The notes below the pieces were generated by a model, which did not search any database, had not been told where the DNA came from, and saw only the letters and a program-made list of their open reading frames with translations. From Alphaproteobacteria bacterium (GTDB lineage Bacteria; Pseudomonadota; Alphaproteobacteria; UBA828): DNA of 64,000 bases. How positions within the stretch are numbered: position 1 is the stretch's first letter; every line of letters begins with the position of its first letter. Of this stretch, positions 20,701-48,449 are shown in pieces. The stretch lies in contig OZ243972.1 in assembly GCA_965214705.1 (NCBI GenBank), positions 2,304,001 through 2,368,000 of the forward strand. Reading direction: 5' to 3'. The position numbers and the translations under genes were made by a program.

Positions 20701-20800
20701 TTGACGCCAACTCTTCGGTGCTCTTACCCTGACTTGGACTAAAGCGCTTAGCCTTGATGTGGGCCAAGAAAGAACCACAAACGCCCCAGGGAGAGGAGAC

Positions 20801-22191
20801 ATGGCTGACAAATCAGACGAGGTTCTCAAACGGACGCTAGAGGAGACCCGGCGCTACAGGATCACCCGGCGCCACTTGATGCAGGGAGCGGTGGCGTCTG
20901 CGGCGGCACTCGCCGCGACCTGGAAACCGAGAGAAGTACGCGCCGACGTTTCCGGTTCGGTGAACGTCTACACATCGTCGGGCCTGCGTTGGGAGGGCTC
21001 CATGCGGGCGGCCCTTCCGCTGTTCGAGCAGGTCTATCCCAACATCGACGTCAACTTCGTCGCCGAGCCCATCGGCGAAACGTTCCCGAAGATCAACGTG
21101 ATGATGGAGTCGCAGATCGACACCTTCAACGTGATCTACACCGACTACGGCCAATGGCCGAGCATGTACGTAAAAGAGGCGCTTACCCCGCTTCAGCCGT
21201 TCGCCGATCAGGATCCGGCATGGTTCGAAGACTACCTGAACGACGTGCCGCGGGAGATCTCCAAGCTGTATCGCGTGCCGCCCGAGCAGGACGGCGAACT
21301 CTATGGCCTGACACCTGATGGCAATGCCCTTCTGGCGACGTATCGCAAGGACGTTCTCGACAAGCATGGAATCTCGTATCCAGAGACATTCGAAGAGTGG
21401 ATCGAGGCCGCCAAGGAGGTCCATGACCCCGACAACGAGGTGTACGCCTACTGCGCTTCGCTCAGCGCGGTGCCTGGTTCGGATTCAACTTCTGGGCAGC
21501 CTTGGCAGCCCATGGCGGCTCGTGGTTCGACCGGATGGAAAAGGGGTATTGGAACCCGACGTTCAACACCGAAGCCGGGTATCTCGCCCTCAAGGCGATG
21601 AAGGAGCTGCAGGCCTACGCGCACCCGGTCACCAGCAACGCGACCGAGGACGAAGTGAACCGGGCGTTCGCGAACGGCAGCGCCCTCCTCGGTCCGAACA
21701 CCTGGGGTACCGCGGTCCTGAACAAACCAGAGTACAGCAAATTCCCGGAGGAGTTCCACTGGGATGTTCCGCCGCGCGGCAGCAATCCGGAAGGTGTCCA
21801 CAAGGCTCTGACTGGCGGGCTCGGCCAGTTCATCCCGCCGTGGAGCGCCGACCACCAGGCGGCGTGGGAGTGGGTCAAATGGATCAACTCCGGCGACATG
21901 ACCGATCCGCGCATCGGCCAGGCCATGGTGGAAGCGGGCGGTCAGCCATCGCGCGTATCGCTTCTCAGCAAGTACGCCGATCAGCGGAACTTCTTCAAGG
22001 GATTGGCGAAGGCGATCCAGGTTGCAACGCCCTATCTCATGCTGGTGCCGGAAGCCATCCCGCTGGTCTCGGCATTCGGTGAGGAGGGTGCCGACTACGT
22101 CAACGATCAAAAGGATATCGAAGACGCCTTGGAGGCGATGGACAGGCGGTGCCGTCGCATCATGGAGGATTCGGGCTACTACGACGACTGA
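20801..22191 (+). pseudogene. Tat-exported sugar-type ABC substrate-binding protein, frameshifted
   Basis: ITRRHLMQ Tat motif, YRKDVLDK..YPETFEEW; a single-base frameshift near 21462 joins it to QRGAWFGFNFW...AWEWVKW; strong RBS. Confidence 0.8.
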
Positions 22192-24474: not shown

Positions 24475-25533
24475 TCATGCCGGCCCACCCGAGGTTTGGG
24501 ACACGTCCGGTGGTGGGCAGGTAGAGCCGCGCACCTTGATTTCACCCTGCAACCGGACCGAGGGGATTGGCGTGCCGTCTGTGAGAAAGTCGCAGATCAC
24601 CTGCGCGCTCTCCTGGCCCATCGCGGCGATGGGCAAGCTTATGCAGGTCAAGCGCGGATAGCTGTGCTCGGACCAGGAGATGTGATCGAAGCCCATGACC
24701 GACATGTCTTGAGGCAGCAGGAGCCCGCTGCGCTGAAGCTCGAACATCGCTCCGAGCGCGACGAGATCGGTGACGCAGAGCAGCGCCGTGGGCCGCCGGT
24801 CCCACGCCAGAGCCTGTTTCGCGGCAACGACGCCACCCCCGACGCTCAGCTCCGTCTCAATAATTCGCAGCGAACGCGCGCCCTCGACGGATTCCGCGCC
24901 GCGAATCCTGAAACGGGCTCGATCGTTCTGCGCCGTGGGCCCGGAGACCAGGGCGACATCCCTGTGGCCGAGGTCGAGCAGATGCCGCATGGCCTGGCGC
25001 CCGAGTTCGACGTTGTCGTAGCCGATGGTCGGCATCGAGGCGGAGGCCTCGTAGATCGAGGTTGCGACCACGGGCGCTCCGAACCGCTTGGCCAGGCCGG
25101 TGAGCTCGGGTTCGTGATCCAGCCCGGTTACGATCAGCGCCCTCGCGCCCATTTCGAGCAACGATCGGGCACGCTCGAGTTCCACGCGGCGGTCCATGCC
25201 CGTCGTGGCGATGAGCAGGCGATAGCCGTTGGCGTCCAGCCCGGCCTCCAGCGCCTCCAGGAACGCCGCGAAGATCGCGTGATTGATGGTGGGAATCACC
25301 GCGCCAACCGTGTTGGTGCCGCCTGCGTTGAGCGCGCGAGCGAGCGGGTCGGGCGCGAAATCGAGCTTGGCGAAGACTCGCAGCACGTCCTCGCGGGTTT
25401 CCGGCGAAACGGATGGCGAGTTGTTCAGGACCCGCGATGCGGTGGCGACCGAGACCCCAGCCTCGCGCGCAACATCCCGCAAAGTGATCCTTCGCGAGGA
25501 CTGTTTGCTCCGCAGTGATCTGCGTTCGGGCAT
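24475..25533 (-). CDS. LacI-family transcriptional regulator
   Basis: ITLRDVAREAGVSVATASRVLN HTH; PQDMSVMGFD; LTCI. Confidence 0.93.
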   Translation of the reverse strand: MPERRSLRSKQSSRRITLRDVAREAGVSVATASRVLNNSPSVSPETREDVLRVFAKLDFAPDPLARALNAGGTNTVGAVIPTINHAIFAAFLEALEAGLDANGYRLLIATTGMDRRVELERARSLLEMGARALIVTGLDHEPELTGLAKRFGAPVVATSIYEASASMPTIGYDNVELGRQAMRHLLDLGHRDVALVSGPTAQNDRARFRIRGAESVEGARSLRIIETELSVGGGVVAAKQALAWDRRPTALLCVTDLVALGAMFELQRSGLLLPQDMSVMGFDHISWSEHSYPRLTCISLPIAAMGQESAQVICDFLTDGTPIPSVRLQGEIKVRGSTCPPPDVSQTSGGPA

Positions 25534-25849
25534 TCCGAGTTCCCGTGCAAATTATGCTGCGGGCGCTGTTCGCCCCTTTGGCAAGGGGTCCAGCCAAGCA
25601 CCACCCGGCCGCGTGTGCGACAAGCCAAGCGGCACCTGCTGCCACCGCGACGGTTGGCGTAGCGCCGAGCCCGGCTGAGCCGTGCGTGCACCCGCAGTAT
25701 ATCCCAAAGTCTCCAAACTCTGTCGTCCGGCGATAAACCGGTCAGGCATGAGGGCACAGCATGGGACCTCGATGCCGGCCAGTATTCCTTGCCCCGCGGC
25801 GGCGTACTGCAGCGTCCGAGCGCGCTTAGAATCTCAAATCGGCCTTCCC

Positions 25850-25915
25850 TGTAACCGGTCACATGCGCTATGGTTGGCTCACGTAACCGGTTACAGGTCA
25901 TAAAACCGGATTCCA
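25850..25915. promoter_or_regulatory. Candidate LacI operators upstream of tauA
   Basis: TGTAACCGGTCACA (25850-25863), perfect palindrome GTAACCGGTTAC (25883-25894) and weaker TAAAACCGGATTCCA (25901-25915); central CG typical of LacI sites. Confidence 0.7.
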
Positions 25916-26063
25916 AGGGTCAATGGGGAGGATGTCCACGTGCGCTCCGCCGCGAGACCATCATTTGAGAGCGAAATGTCACCATGATTGCACGATCGGA
26001 TACTCACGAGCCCATTGCCGAGACTGGACTCTCAACTACCGCAAATCGAAAGGAGTGCTCGAC

Positions 26064-27038
26064 ATGAAACGCACCGGCTTCATGGCAGTCGTCGCGGCAG
26101 GTGTGGCGATGCTGTTCGCATCGTCCGCGTCTGCCCTCGACAAGATCACGGTCGCCTACTTCCTCGAGTGGCCGACCGCGAACCAGGTTGCGCAGCTCGA
26201 GAAGACCTATGACGAGGCGATGGGCGTCGAAGTCGAGTGGCGCGCCTTCGGCAACGGCAACGAGATGAGCCAGGCGATGGTCTCTGGCGACGTGCAAATC
26301 GCCTATTCCCAGGGGCTGGTTCCGTGGGTGGTCGCGGTCACCAACGGGTTGCCTCTCAAGCTCGTCGGCGTGGCGGTGAGCTATGCGGAGGCCGACAACT
26401 GCGTCGTCCATGCCGACACCGGCATCACGCAGGCGAATGCGAGCGAGCTTGAGGGCAAACAGATTGCGACTCCGATCGGCAACGTGACCCACTACAAGCT
26501 CTTGCGCACGCTGGATCACCTGGGAGTGGACGCCTCGAAGGTCAACATGGTGCAGATGAACGGCGCCGACGCGTCGGTCGCGCTCGCGCGCGGAGACGTT
26601 GCCGCGGCCTGCGCCTTCGGCGGCCCGCTCCAGCGGATGAAGGAGTACGGCGACGAGCTGATGACTCCGGCAGAGCAGGAGGCCATCGGCATTCGCGTCT
26701 TCGACGTCGTCTCGGTGACCGAGAGCTTCGCCAACGACCATCCCGACCTGCTGCGGAAGTTCATGGAGGTCACCGATCAGGCGAATGCGGCCTACAACGC
26801 TGATTCGGCGCCGTTCATGGAGACCATCTCCCAGGCAGCCGGCATGGACCTCGCGGCGACGGAAAACATGCTCGGCATGTTCTCGTTCCCGTCGGCGGCG
26901 GACCAGAAGTCGGAAGCCTGGATGGGCGGCACCGTGCAGTCGTTCACCAAGGAAGTGGCGGATTTCTTCGTCCAACAGGGCCAGCTTGACAGCGCTCTCG
27001 ACAGCTACGCCTTCGCGATCGACGACAGCTTCCTCTAA
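26064..27038 (+). CDS. tauA: Taurine/sulfonate ABC transporter substrate-binding protein
   Basis: Signal peptide; ITVAYFLEWPT, YSQG, AEADNCVV; AAGGAG RBS; operon with xsc. Confidence 0.85.
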   Translation: MKRTGFMAVVAAGVAMLFASSASALDKITVAYFLEWPTANQVAQLEKTYDEAMGVEVEWRAFGNGNEMSQAMVSGDVQIAYSQGLVPWVVAVTNGLPLKLVGVAVSYAEADNCVVHADTGITQANASELEGKQIATPIGNVTHYKLLRTLDHLGVDASKVNMVQMNGADASVALARGDVAAACAFGGPLQRMKEYGDELMTPAEQEAIGIRVFDVVSVTESFANDHPDLLRKFMEVTDQANAAYNADSAPFMETISQAAGMDLAATENMLGMFSFPSAADQKSEAWMGGTVQSFTKEVADFFVQQGQLDSALDSYAFAIDDSFL

Positions 27039-27085
27039 GCGCGACCGAGCGCGACTGCGGCTGGCAGGCCGCAGGTGCACGACTC

Positions 27086-27120
27086 CTCCCTGCCTCCCCA
27101 AGCATTCGGGAGGCAGGGAG
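27086..27120 (+). promoter_or_regulatory. Intergenic stem-loop between tauA and tauB (possible mRNA stabiliser)
   Basis: 13-bp perfect stem ctccctgcctccc / gggaggcagggag with no U-tract. Confidence 0.55.
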
Positions 27121-27243
27121 GGCATTTCGCTGCCGATAGCCGGTCCTCGCGCAAAGCGGGGGTCGGTGCCGTGTGCTCGTGGCGCGGGAAGCCTGCGGCT
27201 GTTACGGTCCAAGCCCTTTGGGACCCGCGAAAAAGGGAGCGTG

Positions 27244-28047
27244 ATGGACGGGCTGGTCATCGACAACGTCTCGATGGTCTTCACCTTGCCCAATGGCGGT
27301 AAGGTCCACGCCCTCCAGGACGTCTCGTTGCACCTGAAGCCCGGCGAGCTGATGGCCGTGCTTGGTCCCTCGGGCTGTGGCAAGACCACGCTGCTCAACA
27401 TTGTCGGCGGCTTTCTGGCGCCGACCGCAGGCCAGGCGCTGCTCAACGGCCATCAGGTGACCGGCCCGCACAAGGAACGCGGCGTGGTGTTCCAGCAGGG
27501 TGCGCTGTTCGAGTGGATGACAGTCGCCCAGAACGTGAGCTTTGGCCCGCGCATGTGCGGCGTGCCCCGCGCCGAGATCAAGCAGATCGTACGCCGCCTG
27601 CTCGACACCGTGGCGCTGAAGGGCTTCGCCGACAAGCCGGTCTATCAGCTCTCCGGCGGCATGCAGCAGCGCGTGGCGCTGGCGCGGTGCCTCGCGAACG
27701 ACCCGGACGTGATCCTGATGGACGAGCCGCTGGGCGCGCTGGACGCGCTCACCCGCGAGAAGATGCAGGGTCTCGTGCTCAAGCTGTGGAAGGAGACCGG
27801 CAAGACCATCATCCTGATCACCCACTCGGTCGAGGAAGCGCTCTTCCTCGGTGAGCGCCTGGTGGTGATGGCGCCGCGCCCCGGCCGGATACATAAGGAA
27901 TACACGCTACCCTTCGCCGAGCAGGGGGTCGAAGGGGACGCGCGCGCGATCAAGGCCCAGCCCGACTTCATCACTGCCCGCGAAGAGATCCTCTCCATGA
28001 TTTGGGAGATGGAGGAGGAGATCATGGGCGGCGCCGACGCACGCTGA
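27244..28047 (+). CDS. tauB: Taurine ABC transporter ATP-binding subunit
   Basis: GPSGCGKTT, LSGGMQQRV, MDEPLGALDALTRE, MAPRPGRI. Confidence 0.88.
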   Translation: MDGLVIDNVSMVFTLPNGGKVHALQDVSLHLKPGELMAVLGPSGCGKTTLLNIVGGFLAPTAGQALLNGHQVTGPHKERGVVFQQGALFEWMTVAQNVSFGPRMCGVPRAEIKQIVRRLLDTVALKGFADKPVYQLSGGMQQRVALARCLANDPDVILMDEPLGALDALTREKMQGLVLKLWKETGKTIILITHSVEEALFLGERLVVMAPRPGRIHKEYTLPFAEQGVEGDARAIKAQPDFITAREEILSMIWEMEEEIMGGADAR

Positions 28048-28057
28048 CGAGAAGAGC

Positions 28058-28975
28058 ATGGCGGCGCGCAATCAAAACAAGCAACCCTCGCGCTGGGGCA
28101 TGTGGCTCGGCATCGCGGACACCTCGTTCACCCGGCAGAAGACGATCAAGTTCGGCGATGCGTCGGCGGTGAACTCCGGCCGCCTGTGGTCGGTGCTCAC
28201 CCTGATCCTGCTGATCCTGGCCTGGTGGATCGCGACTATCAGCGGGTTCATCGATCCCCTCTTTTGGCCGCCGCTCGAGGGCAGTCTCTACCCGTGGGAC
28301 AACCCCAATCGGGCTCGGCCCGGCGTCGTCGACCGCTTCGTCAGCCTCTTCGTCGACGGCTACCGCAACATCTCGCTCTGGGAGCACGTCGGGACCTCGG
28401 TCAAGCGCGTGCTGCTCGGCGTCATCATCGGCGCGCTGGTGGGGATCCCGCTCGGCTTTGCCATGGGCCTGAACTCGGTGGCGCGCGGGCTGTTCGATCC
28501 GATCGTCGAGTTCATCCGTCCGATTCCGCCGCTCGCGCTGATTCCGCTGGTCATCCTGTGGCTGGGGATCGACGAGGTCGCCAAGATCTTCCTGCTCTTC
28601 CTGGCTGCGCTCTTCATCATGCTGATCGCGGCCCGCGCCGGCGTGAGCTCCGTGCAAATATCCAAGGTCCACGCGGCCTATTCGCTCGGCGCCTCCAAGT
28701 TCCAGGTGCTGCGCCACGTCATCCTGCCGAACGCCTTGCCGGAGATCTTCACCGGCCTCCGGACCTCCATGGGCGTCTGCTGGGGAACACTGGTCGCGGC
28801 CGAGCTGGTGGCGGCGGATCAGGGGGTCGGCTCGATGATGATGATCGCGAAGAACTTCCTCCAGACCGACGTGGTGGTGATCGGCATCATCATCATCGGA
28901 GCGATCGGGTTCGCCATCGAGATGTTCATGCGCCTGCTCGAGCGATGGCTGATCCCCTGGAAGGGGAAGGGTTGA
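28058..28975 (+). CDS. tauC: Taurine ABC transporter permease
   Basis: RPIPPLA, HAAYSLGAS, LVAAELVAA, PWKGK end. Confidence 0.88.
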   Translation: MAARNQNKQPSRWGMWLGIADTSFTRQKTIKFGDASAVNSGRLWSVLTLILLILAWWIATISGFIDPLFWPPLEGSLYPWDNPNRARPGVVDRFVSLFVDGYRNISLWEHVGTSVKRVLLGVIIGALVGIPLGFAMGLNSVARGLFDPIVEFIRPIPPLALIPLVILWLGIDEVAKIFLLFLAALFIMLIAARAGVSSVQISKVHAAYSLGASKFQVLRHVILPNALPEIFTGLRTSMGVCWGTLVAAELVAADQGVGSMMMIAKNFLQTDVVVIGIIIIGAIGFAIEMFMRLLERWLIPWKGKG

Positions 28976-29042
28976 TGACCCGGAACTCGTCCCACTTTGT
29001 GCGGCCGCAGCGTGGCAATGAAAGGAACAGGAACGTAACGCC

Positions 29043-30809
29043 ATGAGAATGACGACTGAAGAGGCCTTCGTGAAGGTCCTGCAACGGCACGGAATCGAGC
29101 ACGTATTCGGCATCATCGGTTCTGCCTTCATGCCGATATCGGACCTCTTCCCCAAGGCCGGGATCACCTTCTGGGACGTGGCCCACGAGAGCAACGCGGG
29201 CTTCATGTGCGACGGCTACACCCGCGCCACCGGCAAGATCGCCATGTGTATCGGCCAGAACGGCCCCGGCATCACCAATCTCGTGACTCCGGTGAAGACC
29301 GCGTACTGGAACCACACACCGCTGCTGCTGGTGACGCCCCAGGCGGCCAACAAGACCATCGGCCAGGGCGGTTTCCAGGAAGTGCCGCAGATGGCGCTGT
29401 TCGAGGAAATGGTCTGCTATCAGGAGGAGGTGCGCGATGCCTCCCGCATGGCCGAGGTCCTCAACCGGGTGATCGAGAACGCGGTCCGTCAGTCGGCGCC
29501 GGCCCAGATCAACGTGCCGCGCGATCTCTGGACCCAGGAGGTCGATATCGAGCTGCCGCCGGTCGTTCACTTGGAGCGCGCCTCGGGTGGCGAGGACTCG
29601 GTCGCTGAAGCGGCGCGGCTGCTCTCGGAGGCGCGATTCCCGGTCATTCTCTCCGGCGGCGGCGTGGTGATCGGGGGCGCGATCGATGAGTGCCGGGCGC
29701 TGGCCGAGCGCCTCGACGCGCCGGTCTGCTCCGGCTACCAGCACAACGACAGCTTCCCCGGCTCGCACCCGCTGGCCGTGGGACCGCTGGGCTACAACGG
29801 CTCCAAGGCGGCGATGGAGCTGATCGCGCAGGCCGACGTGGTGCTGGCGCTCGGCACCCGGCTCAACCCGTTCTCGACGCTGCCGGGCTACGGCATCGAC
29901 TACTGGCCCAAGGACGCAGTGGTGATACAGGTGGAGCTGAACCCGGATCGCATCGGGCTGACCAAGAAGGTCACGGTCGGGATCTGTGGCGATGCCAGGA
30001 AGGTGGCGCGGCAGCTGCGCGAGCAGCTCGCGGCCGGCGCCGGCGACGTGGGCCGAGAGGAGCGCCGGGCAACGATCCACAGCACCCGCTCCGCTTGGCT
30101 CCAGACGCTCGCCAGCATGGACCACGAGGACGACGATCCCGGAACCACCTGGAACGTAGACGCGCGAACGCGCGAGCCGGACCGGATGTCGGCGCGGATG
30201 GCGTGGCGCGCGATCCAGGACGGCCTGCCCAAGGACGCCATCATCTCGTCCGACATCGGCAACAACTGCGCCATCGGCAACGCCTATCCCACCTTCGAGG
30301 AGGGTCGCAAATACCTGGCGCCGGGGCTGTTCGGCCCGTGCGGCTACGGCTTCCCGGCGATTCTCGGGGCCAAGATCGGCTGCCCCGATGTGCCGGTCGT
30401 GGGCTTCGCCGGCGACGGCGCCTTCGGTATCTCCATGAACGAGATGACGTCGATGGGGCGCGAGGGTTGGCCCGCTATCACCATGGTGGTCTTCCGCAAC
30501 TACCAATGGGGCGCGGAGAAGCGGAACTCGATCCTCTGGTACGACAACAACTTCGTCGGCACTGAGCTGAATCCTGACCTGAGCTACGCCAAAGTCGCGG
30601 ACGCCTGCGGGCTGAAGGGCGTCGCGGTGATCACCATGGGGGAGCTGACGACGGCGCTGCGTGAGTCGTGCGCGGCGCAGGCGGACGGCATTACCACCTT
30701 CATCGAGGTCATTCTCAATCAGGAGCTGGGCGAGCCCTTCCGCCGCGATGCGATGAAGAAGCCCAACGTGGTGGCGGGCATCGACGGCGCCGACATGCGC
30801 CCCCAATAG
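29043..30809 (+). CDS. xsc: Sulfoacetaldehyde acetyltransferase (ThDP-dependent)
   Basis: [52 protein letters not shown]. Confidence 0.96.
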
Positions 30810-31780
30810 TGGACATCGTCGAGCGCCTCATCGCGCAAGCGAAACAGCGTCGGCGTACCGTCGTCCTGCCGGAGGGCGACGACCCGCGGATCCTTCAGGC
30901 GGCGCGGCGGCTGCACGACGAGGGCATCGCTCGTCCCGTCCTGATCGGCGCGCCTGGAGCGTTGGAGGAGGCCGCCGCAGCGGCCGGTGTTTCGCTCGAC
31001 GCCATCGAGAGCGTGGCGCCGGGAGAGAGCGGCACGCTCGACGCCTACGCGACGCTCTACCTCGAAGGCCGGCCGAAGGCGAACGAGCGGGTGGCGAAGC
31101 GCCTGCTCACCAGGCCCTTGTTCTACGGAGCGATGGCGGTGAAGGCGGGCGATGCCGATGCGCTGGTGGCCGGCGCCAGTCAGCCCACGGCGTGGGTCAT
31201 CGAGGCCGGGCTGATGTCGGTGGGGCTTGCGGACGGCATCGCGACACCGTCGAGCTTCTTCATCATGGTGCCCAGGGACGGGGAGCCGCTGGTCTTCGCC
31301 GACTGCGCCGTCAACGTCGAGCCGGACGCGGACGCGCTCGCGGATATCGCCATCGCCTCGGCCAAGAGCGCCGAGAGCTTGCTCGGGGCGCCCGCGCGGG
31401 TGGCCATGCTGTCCTTCTCCACCCACGGCAGCGCCAAGCACGATAAGGTCGAGAAGGTGCGCCGCGCCGTGAAGATCGTGCAGGCACGGGCACCGGAGGT
31501 CGCGATCGACGGCGAGTTGCAGGCGGACGCCGCGCTCGTGCCGCGAGTAGCTGCACTTAAGGTCAAGAACCCGAGCGACGTGGCGGGGCGGGCCAATGTC
31601 CTGGTGTTCCCCGACCTGGATGCCGGCAATATCGGCTACAAGCTGTGCGAGCACGCTGGCGGCATGCGTGCGATCGGCCCGTTCCTGCAAGGCTTCGCAC
31701 GGCCGCTCTGCGATCTCTCGCGGGGCGCGACGGTGGATGACATCGTGGCCGCCGCAGCCATTACCGCTGCGATGGCCTGA
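30809..31780 (+). CDS. pta: Phosphate acetyltransferase
   Basis: [50 protein letters not shown]; GTG overlaps the xsc stop. Confidence 0.93.
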
Positions 31781-31784
31781 CCGC

Positions 31785-32927
31785 TTATCCCCGCTCCTCG
31801 ATCGGCACGTAGTCGCGCGCCTCGGGCCCGGTATAGAGCAGGCGCGGGCGGATCAGGATGTTGTTCTCCAGCTGCTCCATCGCCTGCACGGTCCAGCCCG
31901 GAATGCGCCCGATGGCGAAGATCGGCACGAAGAGATCCTCCGGGATCCCGTGCAGGTAGTAGACGACACCGGCATAGAAATCGACGTTCACGTTGACGCC
32001 GTGCCGGGCGTAGGGGCTCATCGCCTCGACCAGCGCTTCGAGGATCGCGTGCCAGTGCGGCTCCCCCATCTCCTCGGAGAGCCGCCTGACGCCTTCCCGC
32101 ATGTGCCGGGCCCGCGGGTCCTCGGCCCGGTAGACGCGGTGGCCGAAGCCCATGATGGGCTCGCGCGCCTTGCGCTTCGCCTTGACGTAGCCCGCCGCCT
32201 TGGCCGGATCGCCGATCTCCTTGGCCATGCGCATCACGTTCTCGGCCGCGCCGCCGTGGGCTGGGCCGGAGAGCGCAGCCACCGCCGCGGTGATGCCGGC
32301 ATGCAGGTTCGCATCGGTGCTGACCACGACCCGCGCGGTGAACGAGGACGCGTTGGAGCCGTGCTCGGCGTGCAGCACCATGTCCGTGTCCATCAGCGCG
32401 CAGGCGTCCTCGCTTGGCGCTTCCCCCTTGAGCATGTAGAGGAAGTTCGCGGCATGGCCGAGGTCCGCGCTCGCCGGCACAGGCTCGCGGCCCTGGCGAA
32501 TGTGGTGGTGCGCGGTCACGATCATCGGCACCTGCGAGGTGAGCTGTATGCCCTTGCGCCGGGTCGCCTCGAGCGAGTTGTCGCCGGTCTCGGGATCGAA
32601 CGCGGCGAGCGCTGAGACCGCGGTCCGCAGCACGTCCATGGGATGCGAATCCTTCACCGCGCGGATGATGTCGTGGACCGCGCCGGGCAGGGTGCGCGCC
32701 TGCTTCAGCGCGGCGTCGAAGGCGTCGAGCTCGGATCGCGCCGGCAGTTCGCCGTACAGCAACAGGTAGGCGGTCTCCTCGAAGGACGAGCGTGCGGCGA
32801 GATCGTGGATGGAGTAGCCGCGATAGCGCAGCTCGCCGGCGCGGCCGTCGATCAGCGTTGTCGGCGAGCGGTCGAAGCACAGATCCTTTAGGCCGCGATG
32901 GACCTCGGGCTGGTTCGCGTCCGTCAT
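31785..32927 (-). CDS. Citrate synthase / methylcitrate synthase family (short type)
   Basis: [32 protein letters not shown] catalytic motifs; 380 aa. Confidence 0.9.
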   Translation of the reverse strand: MTDANQPEVHRGLKDLCFDRSPTTLIDGRAGELRYRGYSIHDLAARSSFEETAYLLLYGELPARSELDAFDAALKQARTLPGAVHDIIRAVKDSHPMDVLRTAVSALAAFDPETGDNSLEATRRKGIQLTSQVPMIVTAHHHIRQGREPVPASADLGHAANFLYMLKGEAPSEDACALMDTDMVLHAEHGSNASSFTARVVVSTDANLHAGITAAVAALSGPAHGGAAENVMRMAKEIGDPAKAAGYVKAKRKAREPIMGFGHRVYRAEDPRARHMREGVRRLSEEMGEPHWHAILEALVEAMSPYARHGVNVNVDFYAGVVYYLHGIPEDLFVPIFAIGRIPGWTVQAMEQLENNILIRPRLLYTGPEARDYVPIEERG

Positions 32928-32996
32928 GACTTTCTCGCCTTCCGCCAGTTGGGAAATCGAATCGTAGCCGACGGGGCCGGCCAGGCAATCGCCTGC

Positions 32997-33866
32997 TCAG
33001 CCGAGCCTTGTCTGAAGCGCGCGTCCGATCCCCGACGGCGTATCGAGCACCTCGACGCCTGCCGCTTCGAGCGCCGAGCGCTTTGAGGCGTAGGTGCCCT
33101 TGTCGCCCATCACGATGGCGCCGGCGTGTCCCATCTTCTTGCCAGGCGGCGACGCGACGCCCGCGATGAAGGCCACGACAGGCTTGCCCATGTCCCGCGC
33201 GTACTCCGCCGCGTCCTCCTCCATCGTCCCGCCGATCTCGCCGATCACCACGACCGCGTCGGTGCGCTCGTCGGCATCGAGCTCCTGCAGCGCGTCGCGG
33301 GTGGTGGTTCCGACGATCGGGTCGCCACCGATGCCGATGAAGGCAGACTGCCCGAATCCCGCCTGCGCCAGGTTGAGGCAGATCAGGGTGCCGAGGCTGC
33401 CGCTACGGGAGATCACGCCCACGCGGCCGGGCCGGAAGACGTCGGCCTCGAACGCCGGCATGAAACCGACGAAGCACTCGCCCGGCGTGACCAGCCCGGC
33501 GGTGTTGGGGCCGACGACGGCAGCCGCATTCGCCCGCGCCATCGCCAGCAGCTCCATCACGTCCTGCACCGGCACGTGCTCGGTAAGAACGACCAAGCGC
33601 GCGCATCCGGCCTCGATCGCATCCTGCGCCGCCGCCTTCACGCCGAGCGGCGGGATGAACAGAACCGAGACGTCGAAGCCCGTCTCGCACATGGCGTCGC
33701 TGGCGCTCGCATAGACCGGCACGCCGCAATGCCGGGTGCCGGCCTTCTTCGGGTTGACCCCGGCCACGATGCGGGTGCCGTAGGCCTGCATGCGCTCGGT
33801 CCAGTAGGTGCCCTGCTTTCCGGTGATCCCCTGAACGAGCACGCGGTCTGCGCCTCGTGCGATCAT
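32997..33866 (-). CDS. Succinyl-CoA-synthetase-like ADP-forming CoA ligase, alpha subunit (probable sulfoacetate-CoA ligase)
   Basis: [26 protein letters not shown] phospho-His; substrate inferred from context. Confidence 0.85.
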
Positions 33867-35008
33867 TGTGTGGCCCTCGCGCCGCGGGCTGCACCGATCG
33901 CGGCGACGATCGCCAGGTCCATCGTCTCGAAGGGGGTCACGCCGAGCCGTTCGCGGAGCATGGTCTGCGCCTCGGCCGAGCCAGTGCCCCGCACGCTGAA
34001 GAAGACCGGAACGGTCGGCTTGAGCGCTTCCCAGGCGTGGAGCAGCCCGCCGGTCATCACGTCGGTGCGCGCGAACGCACCGCAGAAGTTCACCAGGAGA
34101 CACTTGACCTTGGGGTTGTCGAGCACGAGCTCCAAGGCCGGCCTGGCCTTGGTGTACGCCGCGCCGCCGATTTCCAGGAAGTTCGCCGGCCTCCCGCCGT
34201 GGTGCGTGATGACGTCCATGGTGGTCATGGTGAGCCCGGCACCGTTGGCGAGCACGCCGATGTCGCCGTCGAGCTCGATGTACCGCAACCCGAGGGCTTG
34301 CCCGCGCGCCTCCAGCGGCGTGAGCGGGTCCGGGCTTCCTCGGCTCGCGAGCTCCTGCTGGCGCTGGATGCCAGAATCGTCGAGGGTGAACTTGCAGTCG
34401 AGCGCAACCAGCCGCCCGTCCGCGAGCCGGGCCAGAGGATTCACCTCGAGCAACTCGGCGTCGTTCTCGCGGTAGGCGCGATAGAGCGCGGCTAGGGTCT
34501 CGGCGAGTGGTTCCTCGTCGCTGCCGAGGCCAAGGCCACCCAACATCGCGCGCGCAGCGTCGAGGTCGAAACCTCGCAGGATGTCGACGGGCGCCTGCCG
34601 CAGACGATCCGGCTGCGACGCTGCGATCTCCTCAACGTCCATACCGCCGTCGGACGAGACCATCACCAGCGGCCCCTCCGAGGCCGCGTCGTTGAGGACC
34701 GCTGCGTAGTACTCGGCTGCGATCTGCACCCGCTCCTCGATGAGCACCGAAGCCACCCGATGCCCCGCGATCTCCATGTCGAGGATCGCGCTCGCGGCGT
34801 CATGGGCGGCCTGGGGATCGTCCGCCGTGCGGATGCCGCCAGCCCTGCCGCGCTTGCCCGCCGGCACCTGGGCCTTGACCACCACTGGCACCCCGAGTGC
34901 TGCCGCCGCGGCCTCGGCCTCGCTCGCGCTCCGGGCTAGGCGGCCGCGGGGGATCGCGATCCCCGCCGCCTGCAGCAGCGGCTTCGCCGCATGCTCCTCG
35001 AAGTTCAC
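33863..35008 (-). CDS. Succinyl-CoA-synthetase-like ADP-forming CoA ligase, beta subunit (probable sulfoacetate-CoA ligase)
   Basis: VVKAQV..GKRGRAGG ATP-grasp, EVNPL, NGAGLTMTTMD, PANFLEIGG. Confidence 0.85.
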   Translation of the reverse strand: MNFEEHAAKPLLQAAGIAIPRGRLARSASEAEAAAAALGVPVVVKAQVPAGKRGRAGGIRTADDPQAAHDAASAILDMEIAGHRVASVLIEERVQIAAEYYAAVLNDAASEGPLVMVSSDGGMDVEEIAASQPDRLRQAPVDILRGFDLDAARAMLGGLGLGSDEEPLAETLAALYRAYRENDAELLEVNPLARLADGRLVALDCKFTLDDSGIQRQQELASRGSPDPLTPLEARGQALGLRYIELDGDIGVLANGAGLTMTTMDVITHHGGRPANFLEIGGAAYTKARPALELVLDNPKVKCLLVNFCGAFARTDVMTGGLLHAWEALKPTVPVFFSVRGTGSAEAQTMLRERLGVTPFETMDLAIVAAIGAARGARATQ

Positions 35009-35042
35009 GATGTTCGGTTCCGTATGGCGCCGGCGGTTACGC

Positions 35043-36464
35043 TTACTTGCCGTGCTTCTCCCAGTAGGCGCCGAACAGCGCCTCCTCGCTGGGTCTGTCT
35101 TCGGGGATCGGCATCGCGAGATGGGTGATGTTGAGGAAATGCCGGTAGTTGAGGTTCTCGCTGATGCTGTTGCCTTGCCAGGTGCCGCAGCCCATGGAGA
35201 GCGTGAAGTTGAGCCCGCTGTCGAAGCCCCCGCCGTTGCCGAAGGTGTGCGCCATGTTCACCAGCACGCGGGCGGTATCGAGCTCCTCGGCGAGCCGGCG
35301 TGCGTGCGCCATCTCCTGCGTATGGATGCCGACGGAGTGGCCGCGCCCCTTGACCGCCATGATCGCGCGGACCTTATCCACGGCATCGTCGAAGCTCTCC
35401 GCGCGATAGACGGTGAGCACGAGGGCGAGCTTCTCGTCGGAGAACGGATACTCGGGACCGATCCCGGTCTCCTCGACCATGAAGAACTTCGCGCCACCCA
35501 CCTTGTCATCGAGGCCGCATTCTGTCGCAAGAACTTCGAAGTCCTTCGCGATCACACTGCGGTTGAGCGTTCCGTCCGCCCAGAGAGTGCGCTGGATCGC
35601 CTCTTTCTCCGCCGCGCTCGCCAGGTGGCCACCGGCGCGTTCCAGCGCGGCCACCGTGTCGTCGTAGACGTCGTCCAGGATGATGACCGCGTTCTCCGAC
35701 GAGCATGACGTCGCGTTGTCGAAGCACTTCGACGCGGCAATCTTCGCCGCCGCTGTGTCGAGGTCCGCGCTGGAATCGATGATGACCGGGACGTTCCCTG
35801 CGCCAACCCCGATGGCGGGCGTGCCGCTACGGTAGGCGGCGCGCACATTGCTCTGCGAGCCGGTGACGACCACGAGGTCGCAGGCCGACATCAGCGCGTT
35901 TGTGATCGCCTTGTCCACTGGAGGCGGCAGCACCTGAACGAGATCCGCCGGCGCGCCAATCTTCTCCAGCTCTGCCCGCATCAGCGCAACTGCGCGTGTG
36001 GTCGTCGGGAGGCCCGCCGGCGACGGCGCAATGACGATCGCGTTGCGGCCCTTGATCGCCATCATCGCCTTGTTCACCGGTGTCGCCGCGGGGTTGGTGG
36101 AGGGCGTCACCGCGCCGACCACGCCGACCGGCTTCGCGTACTTCACCAGTCCGAGTTCCGGCTGCTCCTCGATGATGCCGACGCTCTTCACCCGCATGAG
36201 GTCGCGCAGCGTGCCGAAAGTCTTGCGCTGGTTCTTGACCACCTTGTCTGCCGCGTTGCCGAGGCCGGTGTCTTTGACCGCCATCGCAGCGAGGGCCTCG
36301 GCGTTTTCCGGCTTGTAGAGCGACCACGCCAGCGCGGTCACCGCCTCGTCCACCCGCGCCTGATCCGAGGCCGCGAAGGCCTCCATGGCCGCGCGCCCGC
36401 GACGGACCAGGGTATCGACGATCGCGACCGGGTCGCGTCCGAAGATTTCGGCAGGCTGGCTCAT
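35043..36464 (-). CDS. sauS: Acylating aldehyde dehydrogenase, probable sulfoacetaldehyde dehydrogenase (acylating)
   Basis: TPSTNPAATP, GVGAGN, FDNATSCSSEN, GNGGGFDSGLNFTLSMGCGTW; next to xsc and a CoA ligase. Confidence 0.8.
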   Translation of the reverse strand: MSQPAEIFGRDPVAIVDTLVRRGRAAMEAFAASDQARVDEAVTALAWSLYKPENAEALAAMAVKDTGLGNAADKVVKNQRKTFGTLRDLMRVKSVGIIEEQPELGLVKYAKPVGVVGAVTPSTNPAATPVNKAMMAIKGRNAIVIAPSPAGLPTTTRAVALMRAELEKIGAPADLVQVLPPPVDKAITNALMSACDLVVVTGSQSNVRAAYRSGTPAIGVGAGNVPVIIDSSADLDTAAAKIAASKCFDNATSCSSENAVIILDDVYDDTVAALERAGGHLASAAEKEAIQRTLWADGTLNRSVIAKDFEVLATECGLDDKVGGAKFFMVEETGIGPEYPFSDEKLALVLTVYRAESFDDAVDKVRAIMAVKGRGHSVGIHTQEMAHARRLAEELDTARVLVNMAHTFGNGGGFDSGLNFTLSMGCGTWQGNSISENLNYRHFLNITHLAMPIPEDRPSEEALFGAYWEKHGK

Positions 36465-36927
36465 CGTCGGTGTCGCTCCTCGAGTTTCTGAATATCGCGC
36501 CGAAGGCAGAACTTGGTGCAGGTTCCGGCTTTGAATCAAGCATCTTACGTGCAGAGCGGCAGTCGTGCAGCAGGGTACGCCCAAGCCGAACGAGGACAGA
36601 GCCGCTGACGTGACGGTCGCCGATGTCGATGGTGAGGCTGGAATCGGGAACACAATCGCCGAATAGTGCCCAAAAGGGAGAATTGGGGGTGACTAAAGTG
36701 GCAAATCGGACCCCTGAAATAGGCGAAAAGGCTTATCCCTCTGGCTCCGGTTCCCCAACATGTTGTACCGGCCACCTCGGCGGCGGTATCCGACACGGTC
36801 GCAGTTCCTTCCGTGTCTCAATGGGTTGCCCGTAAAGTGCCCAGCGATCCGGCACCCCACATATGGAGAAGCCGGATGTAAGGGGATAAGCCTTTAGGCG
36901 AATAATCCCGTAAGTCCCGTGAAGGAT

Positions 36928-37004
36928 TGGCGCGCTCGGGAGGATTCGAACCCCCGACCCCCAGATTCGTAGTCTGGTGCTCTATCCAGCTGAGCTACGA
37001 GCGC
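36928..37004 (-). tRNA. tRNA-Arg(ACG)
   Basis: GCGCTCGTAGCTCAGCTGGATAGAGCACCAGACTACGAATCTGG...GGTTCGAATCC...GCGCCA, 77 nt with encoded CCA. Confidence 0.97.
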
Positions 37005-37207: not shown

Positions 37208-37837
37208 ATGCGCAAGCCCGCTTCCATGAAGGCTCTCGAAAAGCTCGGCCGGGTTCGGCTGTCCGAGCACTTCTTCATGCGCGAGATGCTCCATAGCGAG
37301 ATCGCGAACTTCCACGGTATTCCCAACATTCCGGACGATCCGGACCTCGCGGTTGCGGCCGGGACCCGGCTCTGCGAGGAGCTGCTCGAGCCCCTGCACG
37401 CGACCTTCGGCCACGTCTCGATTCGCTCCGCCTTCCGCTCGGTCGAGGTCAACACCTACGGCCACGAGCGGTCGGACAGGGGCTACAATTGCGGCGAGAC
37501 AACCTGGAATTATGCGAGACACGTCTGGGATCGCCGCGATGCCGAGGGCCACATGGGAGCGACCGCCTGCATCGTCATCCCCTGGTTCGTGCCGCGCTAC
37601 GAAGCGGGCACGCCCTGGCAGGCCCTCGCCTGGTGGATACACGACAGCCTGCCGTACTCGGACATGGCGTTCTTCCCCACCTACGCCGCCTTCAACCTGC
37701 GCTGGTGCGAGCAGCCCAACCGGCGCATCGAGAGCTTTGCGGCGCCCAAGGGCTGCCTCACCAAGCCCGGCATGACGAACCACGCCGGCGACCACGCCTC
37801 GGAATACCCCGGCTTCCCGGCGCTCAAGCGCCACTGA
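37208..37837 (+). CDS. Conserved hypothetical protein, peptidase M15-like
   Basis: RLSEHFFMREMLHSE, LCEELLEPL..FG..IRSAFRS..VN; AAGGAG RBS. Confidence 0.6.
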   Translation: MRKPASMKALEKLGRVRLSEHFFMREMLHSEIANFHGIPNIPDDPDLAVAAGTRLCEELLEPLHATFGHVSIRSAFRSVEVNTYGHERSDRGYNCGETTWNYARHVWDRRDAEGHMGATACIVIPWFVPRYEAGTPWQALAWWIHDSLPYSDMAFFPTYAAFNLRWCEQPNRRIESFAAPKGCLTKPGMTNHAGDHASEYPGFPALKRH

Positions 37838-41780: not shown

Positions 41781-41827
41781 CAACAAGCGATATCGCCATG
41801 ACCCCGCGAGCGGAAGGAGGCCGCGCC

Positions 41828-42247
41828 ATGGCTCCGACACGCAGGGATGTGCTGCTGCTCAGCGCTTCCGCCACGGCGGCTGCGCTGATTCCTGCCGGTA
41901 CGGCCCAGGCCTCCAACGGCGTCTGGCAGGCCATCGACGAATTCACCGGAAGCGCGCTGCGCCTGGAAGGCGGTATGCTGCTCGATGCGCCGGAGATCTT
42001 CGACAACGGCGGCGCCGTGCCGATTCGGGTCGTGGCCGAGGGCGCGCGACGCATCGCGCTCTTCAATGATGGAAACCCGAATCCCGGCGTCGCGGTCTTC
42101 AACTTCGGCAGGCTCGTGCGGCCCGAAGCCACGATCCGCATCCGGCTCGCGCAGAGCCAGACCGTGTATGCAGTGGCGGAGATGGGGGACGGCACCTACC
42201 GCGAGGCCTCCCAGAAGATCGCGGTCACCGTCGGCGGCTGCGGCTGA
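41828..42247 (+). CDS. soxY: Sulfur carrier SoxY
   Basis: Tat signal TRRDVL, APEI.DNG..VP, RIRLAQSQ, C-terminal VTVGGCG. Confidence 0.92.
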   Translation: MAPTRRDVLLLSASATAAALIPAGTAQASNGVWQAIDEFTGSALRLEGGMLLDAPEIFDNGGAVPIRVVAEGARRIALFNDGNPNPGVAVFNFGRLVRPEATIRIRLAQSQTVYAVAEMGDGTYREASQKIAVTVGGCG

Positions 42248-42257
42248 GGAGGGGGCG

Positions 42258-42584
42258 ATGGCGCAACCCAGGCCGCGCGTGAAGCTGCCTAGGTCAATCG
42301 AGGCAGGCGTCCCCTTCACGGTCAAGACCCGGATCACCCATCCGATGCATACCGGAGAGCGCCACGACAGCGACGGCGTGCTCGTGCCCCGCCGGATCAT
42401 CAACCGCTTCGTGGTCAGCTACAACGGCGAGGTGGCGATCACCGTCGATCTGGAGCCGGCGGTCTCGGCCGACCCTTACGTTCAATTCCAGTTGGCCGTC
42501 CCGGACTCGGGCCTTCTGGAATTCCAGTGGTTCGATGATGACGGCTCCGTCTACAGCCTCAGCAAACAGGTTGAGGTCGACTAG
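42258..42584 (+). CDS. soxZ: Sulfur carrier partner SoxZ
   Basis: KTRITHPMHTG.R, PRRIINRF, PAVSADPY. Confidence 0.92.
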   Translation: MAQPRPRVKLPRSIEAGVPFTVKTRITHPMHTGERHDSDGVLVPRRIINRFVVSYNGEVAITVDLEPAVSADPYVQFQLAVPDSGLLEFQWFDDDGSVYSLSKQVEVD

Positions 42585-42591
42585 GGCCACG

Positions 42592-43326
42592 ATGGGACAC
42601 CGGGCCGCCGGATTCGCGGCATGGGCCGCCTCCGGGATGCTCGCCGTGACTCTTCTGCTCTTGCTCCCCGCCGCCGGCGCATGGAGCGCCGATGCCGAAC
42701 GCGGCAAGGCTCTCTTCGGCCAATGCAAGCGCTGCCACCAGGTCGGCAGCGGCGCGGCGCATCGCATCGGCCCGCACCTCAACGATGTCTTCGGCCGCAC
42801 GGCCGGTTCGTTCGCGAACTTCCGCTATTCCGACGCGATGAAGGCGGCCGGGTCTGGCGGCTTGGTCTGGAGCGAGGCGACGCTCGACGCCTTCCTCGCC
42901 GATCCGCACACGTTCGTGCCGCACTCGCGCATGAGCTTCGACGGCATGGAGGGGGCCGAGGACAGAGCAGACCTCGTGGCGTGGTTGCGTGGCTTTTCGG
43001 GAGATCACTCCAATTCGTCACCGGCGGAGCCCACCGCCACGCCCGAGGAATACGGCCTCGATCCGCAGATCCTCGCCATCGAGGGTGACCCCGAGTACGG
43101 CGCCTATCTCGCGGGCGAATGCACTACCTGCCACCGGACGGACGGTACCGACGAGGGCATCCCCTCGATAACCGGATGGCCGCTCGATGACTTCGTGATA
43201 GCCTTGCACGCGTACAAGGGCGGAAAGAGGGTGCATCCCGTCATGCAGATGGTGGCCGGGCGCCTGTCGGACGAAGAGATCGCCGCCCTCGCTGCGCATT
43301 TCCGCAAGGCGGACGACGATCCGTGA
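42592..43326 (+). CDS. soxE: Diheme c-type cytochrome, SoxE-like
   Basis: CKRCH (c2-like domain) and GDPEYGAYLAGECTTCH; lies directly upstream of soxF. Confidence 0.8.
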   Translation: MGHRAAGFAAWAASGMLAVTLLLLLPAAGAWSADAERGKALFGQCKRCHQVGSGAAHRIGPHLNDVFGRTAGSFANFRYSDAMKAAGSGGLVWSEATLDAFLADPHTFVPHSRMSFDGMEGAEDRADLVAWLRGFSGDHSNSSPAEPTATPEEYGLDPQILAIEGDPEYGAYLAGECTTCHRTDGTDEGIPSITGWPLDDFVIALHAYKGGKRVHPVMQMVAGRLSDEEIAALAAHFRKADDDP

Positions 43327-43343
43327 GCCAGGGGAGACACGTC

Positions 43344-48373: not shown

Positions 48374-48449
48374 GTCCCCATCGTCTAGTGGCCTAGGACA
48401 CCGGCCTCTCACGCCGGAAACGGGGGTTCGAGTCCCCCTGGGGACGCCA
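48374..48449 (+). tRNA. tRNA-Glu(CTC)
   Basis: GTCCCCATCGTCTAGTGGCCTAGGACACCGGCCTCTCACGCCGGAAACGGGGGTTCGAGTCCCCCTGGGGACGCCA, 76 nt. Confidence 0.97.

Follow-up and report, generated by a model that had tools for sequence, protein, structure and literature searches.

A predicted C2-sulfonate cassette with facing tauABC-xsc-pta and sauS-sauCD-citrate synthase arms in an alphaproteobacterial genome

We have analysed a 64,000-nucleotide stretch of the genome of an alphaproteobacterium of the UBA828 lineage (assembly GCA_965214705.1, contig OZ243972.1, positions 2,304,001 to 2,368,000 of the forward strand; hereafter, the window), in which genes for the metabolism of C2 sulfonates are arranged in two convergent arms. 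The arm on the plus strand has the gene order tauABC-xsc-pta and is preceded by a divergently oriented regulatory gene of the LacI family, and the arm on the minus strand has the order sauS-sauC-sauD, followed by a gene for a citrate synthase. With moderate confidence, we read the locus as a self-contained catabolic cassette in which taurine and sulfoacetate would converge, via sulfoacetaldehyde, on acetyl-CoA and citrate. The enzymes are all of known kinds, and it is only their packaging that is unusual. An earlier note on this DNA had already named the structural genes; all of them are in place and give strong profile matches. The note left the LacI-family gene unnamed, although the first coordinate of the region that it described, 24475, is the end of precisely this gene.

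Gene arms, regulator and predicted enzymes

The first gene of the plus-strand arm encodes a periplasmic binding protein of the TauA/SsuA family (26064..27038); its open reading frame extends from 25923, but the likely start is at 26064, with an AAGGAG ribosome-binding site and a signal peptide. It is followed by genes for a TauB-like ATPase (27244..28047; PF00005) and a TauC-like permease (28058..28975; PF00528) of an ATP-binding cassette (ABC) transporter. The binding protein, ATPase and permease score 154 bits on TIGR01729 (cut-off 304), 297 bits on NF008421 (cut-off 357) and 234 bits on NF007545 (cut-off 342), respectively. The next gene encodes Xsc, sulfoacetaldehyde acetyltransferase (29043..30809), which scores 1013 bits on NF005713 and 955.7 bits on TIGR03457 (cut-off 676.4), and contains the TPP_enzyme_N, _M and _C domains of Pfam. 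The gene is present in a single copy in the genome, the next best tblastn match being 26% identical. The GTG start codon of pta overlaps the stop codon of xsc by one nucleotide, and its product, the phosphate acetyltransferase Pta (30809..31780), scores 346.7 bits on PF01515, 348.8 bits on NF007233 (cut-off 310) and, slightly under the cut-off of 311.2, 307.3 bits on TIGR00651.

The minus-strand arm starts with sauS (35043..36464), encoding an acylating sulfoacetaldehyde dehydrogenase that scores 770.8 bits on the SauS equivalog NF047625 (cut-off 600) and corresponds to a single tblastn match in the genome; a conserved leader and promoter stretch lies 5' of it (36465..36580, minus strand). The two following genes, joined by an ATGA overlap, encode the subunits of an ADP-forming coenzyme A (CoA) ligase: a SucC-like, SauC-type beta subunit (33863..35008) with ATP-grasp_2 and Ligase_CoA domains, and a SucD-like, SauD-type alpha subunit (32997..33866) with CoA_binding and Ligase_CoA domains. 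The last gene encodes a small (type II) citrate synthase paralog of 380 amino acids (31785..32927). The earlier note had described two convergent operons that end a few base pairs apart, and indeed the stop codons of pta (31778-31780) and of the citrate synthase gene (31785-31787) lie tail to tail with 4 nucleotides between them. No intrinsic terminator was predicted at this junction; pta does end in a GC-rich hairpin, but its z values of -1.6 and -1.4 fall short of significance. A scan for sigma-70 promoters gave 0 sites.

The regulator gene (24475..25533, minus strand) is divergent from tauA and encodes a protein with a LacI helix-turn-helix domain (PF00356) and a periplasmic-binding-protein-like effector domain of the Peripla_BP_1/3 type (PF00532, PF13377), for which every NCBIfam equivalog stayed under its cut-off. 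An ortholog that is 88-98% identical was found in all five relatives searched, and it lies directly beside tauA in four of them. The intergenic region between the two genes contains two 14-bp palindromes that resemble LacI operators (25850-25863 and 25882-25895), each with one mismatch to TGTAACCGGTTACA. At up to 3 mismatches they are the only two matches in the 64 kb, where 0.22 would be expected, and 2 of 100 shuffled sequences reach two matches. The LacI-type regulator probably represses the tau arm through these putative operators. No operator-like palindrome is present upstream of sauS, and no operator common to both promoters was found.

The ligase has the two-subunit architecture of SucCD in its Pfam domains, and the alpha subunit contains a GHAGA loop, which we take to be the loop that bears the phosphohistidine. 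It is nevertheless a paralog and not the housekeeping enzyme: a separate sucCD pair elsewhere in the genome, whose products reach 558 bits (SucC) and 453 bits (SucD) with the respective equivalogs, is 38% (beta) and 44% (alpha) identical to the subunits of the locus. With the SucC model NF001913 the beta subunit of the locus reaches 344 bits, short of the 370 required, and with the malate-CoA ligase model 253 bits, where the cut-off is 604; the alpha subunit is borderline on NF004230 (337 bits versus a cut-off of 336) and stays under the cut-off of TIGR01019 (331 versus 353 bits). When 83 beta subunits were placed in a quick maximum-likelihood tree, 81 SauC-like sequences were separated from the SucC proteins of Escherichia coli and of the genome itself with a support of 100, on long branches. 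Together with the scores of the beta subunit, this split argues for a dedicated paralog, so that the outcome which the earlier note had named as fatal to its interpretation, a grouping with housekeeping SucCD or malate-CoA ligase, did not arise. The closest solved structure to the beta subunit is that of the Thermus succinyl-CoA synthetase (3UFX, 278 bits), while citryl-CoA synthetase 6HXQ gives 124 bits; that of SauS is an acylating succinate-semialdehyde dehydrogenase (8CEI, 301 bits). In a protein search with the ligase, the 120 best matches listed each had an identity of 80% or more, and all but four carried no name (116 sequences); the Atlas names of the ligase clusters are limited to a generic succinate-CoA ligase. 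Given the neighbouring SauS, whose counterparts at three distant loci score 759-801 bits on NF047625, the substrate of the ligase would be sulfoacetate.

The citrate synthase of the sau arm is full length, matching positions 1-357 of the 357 of PF00285 (403 bits), and scores 442.5 bits on TIGR01800 (cut-off 421.3), a model that does not separate citrate synthase from 2-methylcitrate synthase. It is of the small type. Among solved structures it lies nearest the Thermus and archaeal citrate synthases, with a Thermus enzyme in first place (1IOM, 332 bits); two methylcitrate synthases, 3HWK and 3O8J, are more distant at 275 and 247 bits. A housekeeping citrate synthase of type I is encoded in the same window (49531-50823; 770 bits on TIGR01798).

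The closest solved structure to the binding protein is E. coli TauA (6SSY, E 7.5e-26). The amine-binding positions of E. coli TauA are Glu106 and Asp205 (PMC6906117). We aligned 20 sequences, namely the protein of the window, E. coli TauA and 18 alphaproteobacterial homologs, and found Asp at both positions in every one of the 18 homologs as well as in the window protein. At the position of Ser32, the window protein and 17 homologs have Glu, and the remaining homolog has Gln. Gln30 and Thr132 are not conserved, with Phe and Val in their places. The full pocket signature is shared with homologs that are 60-70% identical, including one (L141) encoded beside a MocR regulator, an aminotransferase and Xsc. 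At the loci of the 18 homologs, a class III aminotransferase was found in seven and Xsc in six, and SauS, SauC or SauD in none. The pocket of the binding protein therefore looks to be of the taurine type.

Conservation and surroundings of the cassette

Eighty related loci were retrieved from genome contigs, with sauC in all 80, sauD in 79 and sauS in 60 of them. The sauS gene lies immediately upstream of sauC at 59 of the 80 loci, and it is held by 56 of the 69 loci that have at least 1500 nucleotides upstream of sauC. The 13 loci with this space that lack an intact sauS comprise 12 loci from gammaproteobacterial metagenome-assembled genomes (MAGs), which are visibly rearranged, with transposases and unrelated inserts, and one (L079) in which sauS is present in frameshifted pieces. 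All nine structural genes were found at 7 of the 80 loci and the order sauS-sauCD-citrate synthase-pta-xsc at 9, and Xsc is encoded within 8 kb at 16. Citrate synthase matches are likewise present at 16 loci, 15 of which fall in one clade of 27 rows in the beta tree. The block from 25.87 to 36.58 kb, corresponding to a cassette of about 11-12 kb, is collinear at 86-93% nucleotide identity at 10 of the 80 loci, which argues against a chance juxtaposition. The picture given in the earlier note, of two arms meeting at sulfoacetaldehyde, fits with the pairing of sauS and sauC and with the apparently taurine-type transporter of the opposite arm.

The collinearity with most relatives stops beyond sauS. 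The aligned block ends at 36466-36580, that is, within the leader stretch, in 9 of the 10 relatives; the flanks differ in all eight relatives that were annotated, and synteny continues in L015 only. The cassette thus appears to be mobile and to travel as a unit. MAGs labelled Gammaproteobacteria (L012, L016, L018 and L046) have citrate synthase, sauD and sauC genes with 77-88% nucleotide identity to those of the cassette, and one labelled Chloroflexota (L024) has the entire cassette at 87% identity; either horizontal transfer in recent times or errors of binning would account for this. One gammaproteobacterial chromosome has two copies of sauCD, one with sauS directly upstream (L036) and one without sauS and with a citrate synthase gene about 3.5 kb downstream (L018). 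In two other gammaproteobacterial MAGs the pair is split, with sauC and sauD lying 2.8-4 kb apart (L011, 9100-13100, and L013, 9100-11900); the insert in L011 contains an RNA ligase-like gene and an AAA/DUF4143 gene. A TRAP system that lies directly upstream of sauS in L033 was considered as a sulfoacetate importer, but its ortholog in the present genome (86-89% identical) adjoins proline-racemase and Rieske genes, and we read its position in L033 as a difference in flanks.

We also annotated eight more distant loci with sauS-sauCD. TctC and TctA are encoded beside the triad at three of them (L034, L050 and L077, two of which also have TctB), and TctC only at L038. MFS carriers are present at three (L052, L077 and L082), an IclR regulator at two (L052 and L077), Xsc at two (L077 and L082) and a protein of the PTA_PTB family at two (L052 and L082). 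This gene content matches the published pattern of sulfoacetate degradation (PMC10413351), supporting a link of the triad with sulfoacetate. At L038 (1-3556), from a betaproteobacterial MAG, the triad and TctC adjoin glutamate-mutase-like genes (B12-binding, MutL and MutE). A contig labelled Leptospira interrogans (L075) contains sauS-sauCD genes that are 57-68% identical and a TPP enzyme that is 45% identical to Xsc; its beta subunit falls among those of Pseudomonadota in the tree, and the label or the assembly deserves a check.

DNA near-identical to the cassette is present in sequencing runs labelled as sponge and coral metagenomes, runs with shares below 0.2 being disregarded, and contigs of one sponge metatranscriptome library cover 30 of 30 bins of the cassette at a likeness of at least 85%. 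These contigs, which come from relatives, are a weak hint that the copies of relatives are transcribed, given that DNA carry-over is possible. Depth derived from contigs cannot rank genes or arms.

The genome comprises 7.92 Mb in 3 contigs and is rated 98.5% complete and 8.7% contaminated; five relatives with the cassette have considerably smaller genomes, of 4.2-6.2 Mb. The G+C content is 0.62-0.65 across 20-30 kb, compared with 0.67-0.73 in the flanks, which, together with a tRNA-Arg gene upstream of sauS (36928-37004) and an insertion sequence encoding a DDE transposase (45828-46823, minus strand), fits an acquired region. The transposase gene is located between a tRNA-Glu gene (48374-48449) and a group of Sox genes. 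This group, which lies 5-8 kb beyond sauS and is syntenic in L015 only, encodes SoxY, a dihaem cytochrome c and the flavoprotein of a flavocytochrome c sulfide dehydrogenase (41798-44639, plus strand), followed by a YeeE/YedE-type sulfur transporter (47195-48220, minus strand); these proteins could handle sulfite or reduced sulfur released by Xsc. An open reading frame of 209 amino acids (37208-37837, plus strand) has gene-like codon bias (third-position G+C of 0.89), about 90% nucleotide identity in L015 and no match in Pfam or NCBIfam. On the other side of the cassette, two overlapping open reading frames in different frames (20759-22191, plus strand) match positions 10-148 and 170-302 of the SBP_bac_1 profile, which looks like a frameshifted or pseudogenised transporter gene.

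Direction of flux and alternative explanations

In the catabolic reading that we favour, taurine or a close aminosulfonate would be imported by the TauABC-type transporter, whose arm is probably repressed by the LacI-type regulator, and would be converted into sulfoacetaldehyde by an aminotransferase encoded elsewhere in the genome. In the other arm, the SauCD-type ligase would activate sulfoacetate to sulfoacetyl-CoA, and SauS would reduce this thioester to sulfoacetaldehyde. Both arms would be served by Xsc, which is predicted to convert sulfoacetaldehyde into acetyl phosphate and sulfite, and by Pta, forming acetyl-CoA from acetyl phosphate; the small citrate synthase encoded at the end of the operon would then condense the resulting acetyl-CoA with oxaloacetate. 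It is this last gene that provides the best internal argument for the direction of the sau arm, even though it favours catabolism weakly: an additional citrate synthase would be useful if the operon yields acetyl-CoA, and useless if the arm drains sulfoacetaldehyde.

Several observations weigh against this view, and uptake of sulfoacetate is its weak point. Sulfoacetate carriers have been reported in three families, TTT, DASS and MFS. The genome, rated nearly complete as stated above, contains no match for TctA, none for the DASS/SauI family and, in tblastn searches with TTT and MFS proteins encoded beside sauSCD at other loci, none for those proteins. The only transporter of the cassette has an acidic pocket of the amine type, which should repel a dianion such as sulfoacetate. 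None of its three subunits reaches its E. coli-based taurine equivalog cut-off, for which reason we consider the system to be TauABC-like in function and not an equivalog of E. coli TauABC. For the deamination of taurine, the cassette has neither an aminotransferase nor a taurine dehydrogenase linked to it, it being noted that no dedicated search for TauXY was made. The genome encodes 24 class III aminotransferases, and none of the 22 that were scanned matched an NCBIfam model named taurine--pyruvate aminotransferase. One of the 24 resembles clusters that were automatically given this name, which makes it a lead only, and another is an equivalog of the omega-aminotransferase AptA that shares 48% identity with an aminotransferase encoded next to sauSCD at a related locus. 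The neighbourhoods of these two candidates, as well as those of the TRAP system and of the single TauE/SafE-family gene of the genome, showed no sulfonate context. Moreover, the operator-like palindromes are present only before tauA, which lends no support to a co-regulation of the two arms, and the assignment of the ligase to SqwKL or to the SauCD type of Bilophila wadsworthia is a putative one, based on architecture and gene context. Finally, going from an aldehyde to a thioester by oxidation is downhill, and an expressed SauS-SauCD arm could therefore run the opposite way.

This last point leads to a possible, though in our opinion rather unlikely, alternative, already raised in the earlier note, in which the sau arm is oxidative and converts part of the taurine-derived sulfoacetaldehyde via sulfoacetyl-CoA into sulfoacetate, with a gain of ATP in the SauCD reaction. 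The sulfoacetate would be excreted, perhaps under oxygen limitation or where taurine is used chiefly for its nitrogen. The carriers of the cassette would then be net producers of sulfoacetate. What keeps this alternative alive is the combination of a taurine-type, dianion-repelling pocket in the sole importer of the cassette with the failure to find a TTT, DASS or matching MFS carrier, to which a TauE/SafE-family gene for an exporter may be added. The exporter gene, however, lies about 75 kb away among glnD, murJ and trpS, and the cassette itself has none. The ADP-forming ligase can run in both directions, and homologs that work oxidatively with a yield of ATP are on record (PMC12890257, PMC10413351). 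DNA near-identical to the cassette occurs in sponge- and coral-labelled runs, and a study of sponge holobionts states that it is not known where their sulfoacetate comes from (10.1101/2025.03.15.643485). Against excretion stand the co-operonic organisation of the citrate synthase gene with sauSCD, which would be pointless if carbon were diverted from acetyl-CoA, and the binding-protein-dependent importers that adjoin distant sauSCD loci, indicating uptake; an aerobe would also gain far more energy from the oxidation of acetyl-CoA. A more elaborate version, which we regard as unlikely and speculative, holds that the cassette imports taurine only and is a taurine-to-sulfoacetate converter with ATP gain, that convergent read-through across the terminator-less tail-to-tail junction makes the expression of the arms, and hence the two fates, mutually exclusive by transcriptional interference, and that the carriers are the missing producers for symbionts with SauXYZ.

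Two further alternatives question the substrates rather than the direction. We see little chance that the TauABC-like system imports sulfoacetate, alone or in addition to taurine, which would make the cassette a one-substrate sulfoacetate pathway with an ABC transporter in place of TTT or MFS carriers. It is true that a cassette which moves as a unit between different flanks contains no transporter but this one, that the search of the genome for other known sulfoacetate carriers gave none and that its subunits stay under the taurine equivalog cut-offs; but the acidic residues at both amine-binding positions, the Glu at the position of Ser32 and the occurrence of the same signature at loci with an aminotransferase, Xsc and MocR but no sau genes all argue for taurine. 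A SucCD-like ligase beside a citrate-synthase-like gene also recalls the citryl-CoA synthetase/lyase pair of Hydrogenobacter. The sau arm might, then, encode such a pair, or else a set of acylating succinate-semialdehyde dehydrogenase, second succinyl-CoA synthetase and citrate synthase, as the closest structures, 8CEI and 3UFX, would suggest, and at four gammaproteobacterial loci (L012, L016, L018 and L046) the ligase and citrate synthase genes are indeed linked without sauS within 8 kb. That the arm is not sulfonate-specific is nonetheless very improbable to us. The dehydrogenase reaches 771 bits with the SauS equivalog but just 46 (TIGR01780) and 62 bits (NF006916) with the succinate-semialdehyde dehydrogenase models listed, the beta subunit does not reach the SucC and malate-CoA ligase cut-offs, and citryl-CoA synthetase 6HXQ is a far weaker match. 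The citrate synthase, full length and passing TIGR01800, is covered by citryl-CoA lyase models over residues 157-367 only, at no more than 120 bits. In addition, the arm faces xsc-pta at 9 of the 80 loci, with Xsc nearby at 16, and the gammaproteobacterial loci are visibly rearranged.

Comparison with known C2-sulfonate systems

C2 sulfonates, taurine foremost, are major currencies of carbon, nitrogen and sulfur between marine animals and their bacteria. The ADP-forming SauCD route has been treated in the literature considered here mainly as a trait of anaerobic sulfite reducers. In the present cassette, the ADP-forming ligase is packed together with Xsc, Pta, a taurine-type importer and a citrate synthase of its own, and this unit recurs across lineages with high nucleotide identity. 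The cassette adds neither a new enzyme nor a new pathway; it does call for a correction of the annotation of the ligase genes, which are currently labelled only succinate- or acetate-CoA ligase, and it raises the testable question of whether its carriers consume or produce sulfoacetate.

The biochemistry of the ligase has been established in B. wadsworthia, whose purified SauCD forms sulfoacetyl-CoA in an ATP- and CoA-dependent manner, with a residual activity of 20% on 3-sulfopropanoate and 7% on malonate, after which SauS reduces sulfoacetyl-CoA to sulfoacetaldehyde (Liu et al. 2023; PMC10413351). According to the same paper, homologs encoded in sulfo-TK clusters had been hypothesised to run in reverse, forming ATP, and a 2026 review describes SqwD and SqwKL as oxidising to sulfoacetate with a gain of ATP (PMC12890257). 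The replacement of SauT by a reversible ADP-forming ligase, which the earlier note had put forward as a new idea, is therefore already in print, as SauCD and as SqwD/SqwKL; the gene identities and the picture of a hub in that note stand, and the novelty of its central inference does not. That both directions operate in this organism, with the locus as the branch point between carbon and energy that the note envisaged or as a regulated switch, is hypothetical.

When compared with the SauXYZ-SauS-SauCD-TauF-IseGH system of B. wadsworthia (J Biol Chem 2023; PMC10413351), the cassette shares the SauS next to a SucCD-type ADP-forming ligase and the same intermediates. It differs in the cleavage of the C-S bond, which is assigned here to Xsc and Pta and there to TauF and the glycyl-radical enzyme IseG, in having no TTT carrier (SauXYZ) or SauI, and in the addition of a citrate synthase and a LacI regulator; the organism studied here also looks aerobic, judging from the type I citrate synthase and the Sox genes in the window. 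The sauRSTU system of the aerobe Cupriavidus necator H16 (PMC10413351) follows the same route from sulfoacetate via sulfoacetyl-CoA to sulfoacetaldehyde and on through Xsc and Pta, but it employs the AMP-forming SauT, the MFS carrier SauU and the IclR regulator SauR, whereas the present ligase is ADP-forming and of the SucCD type, and counterparts of SauU and SauR are absent. The two enzyme types SqwD and SqwKL of the sulfo-TK pathway (Chu et al. 2023, via PMC12890257) are the same as SauS and SauCD and lead from sulfoacetaldehyde to sulfoacetate with a gain of ATP; they are, however, encoded in sulfoquinovose clusters of strict anaerobes, and no sulfoglycolysis genes are present here.

The canonical taurine loci of alphaproteobacteria (tauR-tauABC-tpa/tauXY-xsc-pta) share the order tauABC-xsc-pta and the pocket signature with the cassette, which in contrast has a LacI-type regulator instead of the MocR-type TauR and no linked aminotransferase or dehydrogenase, TauXY not having been searched for specifically. 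A further parallel is found in sponges, where a dominant symbiont was reported to have a sauSCD cluster with a TTT transporter as well as tauABC, xsc and pta (mSystems 2025; PMC12625764). This study, which describes both sauSCD and sauST clusters, is the only one that treats sau clusters among the matches listed in a literature search on sulfoacetate or taurine in sponge symbionts. In full-text searches, no paper named a sulfoacetaldehyde dehydrogenase, a citrate synthase and sulfoacetaldehyde acetyltransferase together, although the supplementary tables of the mSystems study may list such a layout. The sponge symbionts and the organism studied here thus have in common the presence of sauSCD in an aerobic, host-associated type of proteobacterium that also carries tauABC, xsc and pta. 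The symbionts, however, possess SauXYZ, whereas the sau arm described here has no transporter, lies tail to tail with tauABC-xsc-pta and ends in a citrate synthase gene. What is particular to this locus is therefore that a taurine importer is combined with a sau arm devoid of a sulfoacetate carrier, that a citrate synthase gene is co-operonic with that arm, that the regulator is of the LacI type and that the whole appears to be mobile.

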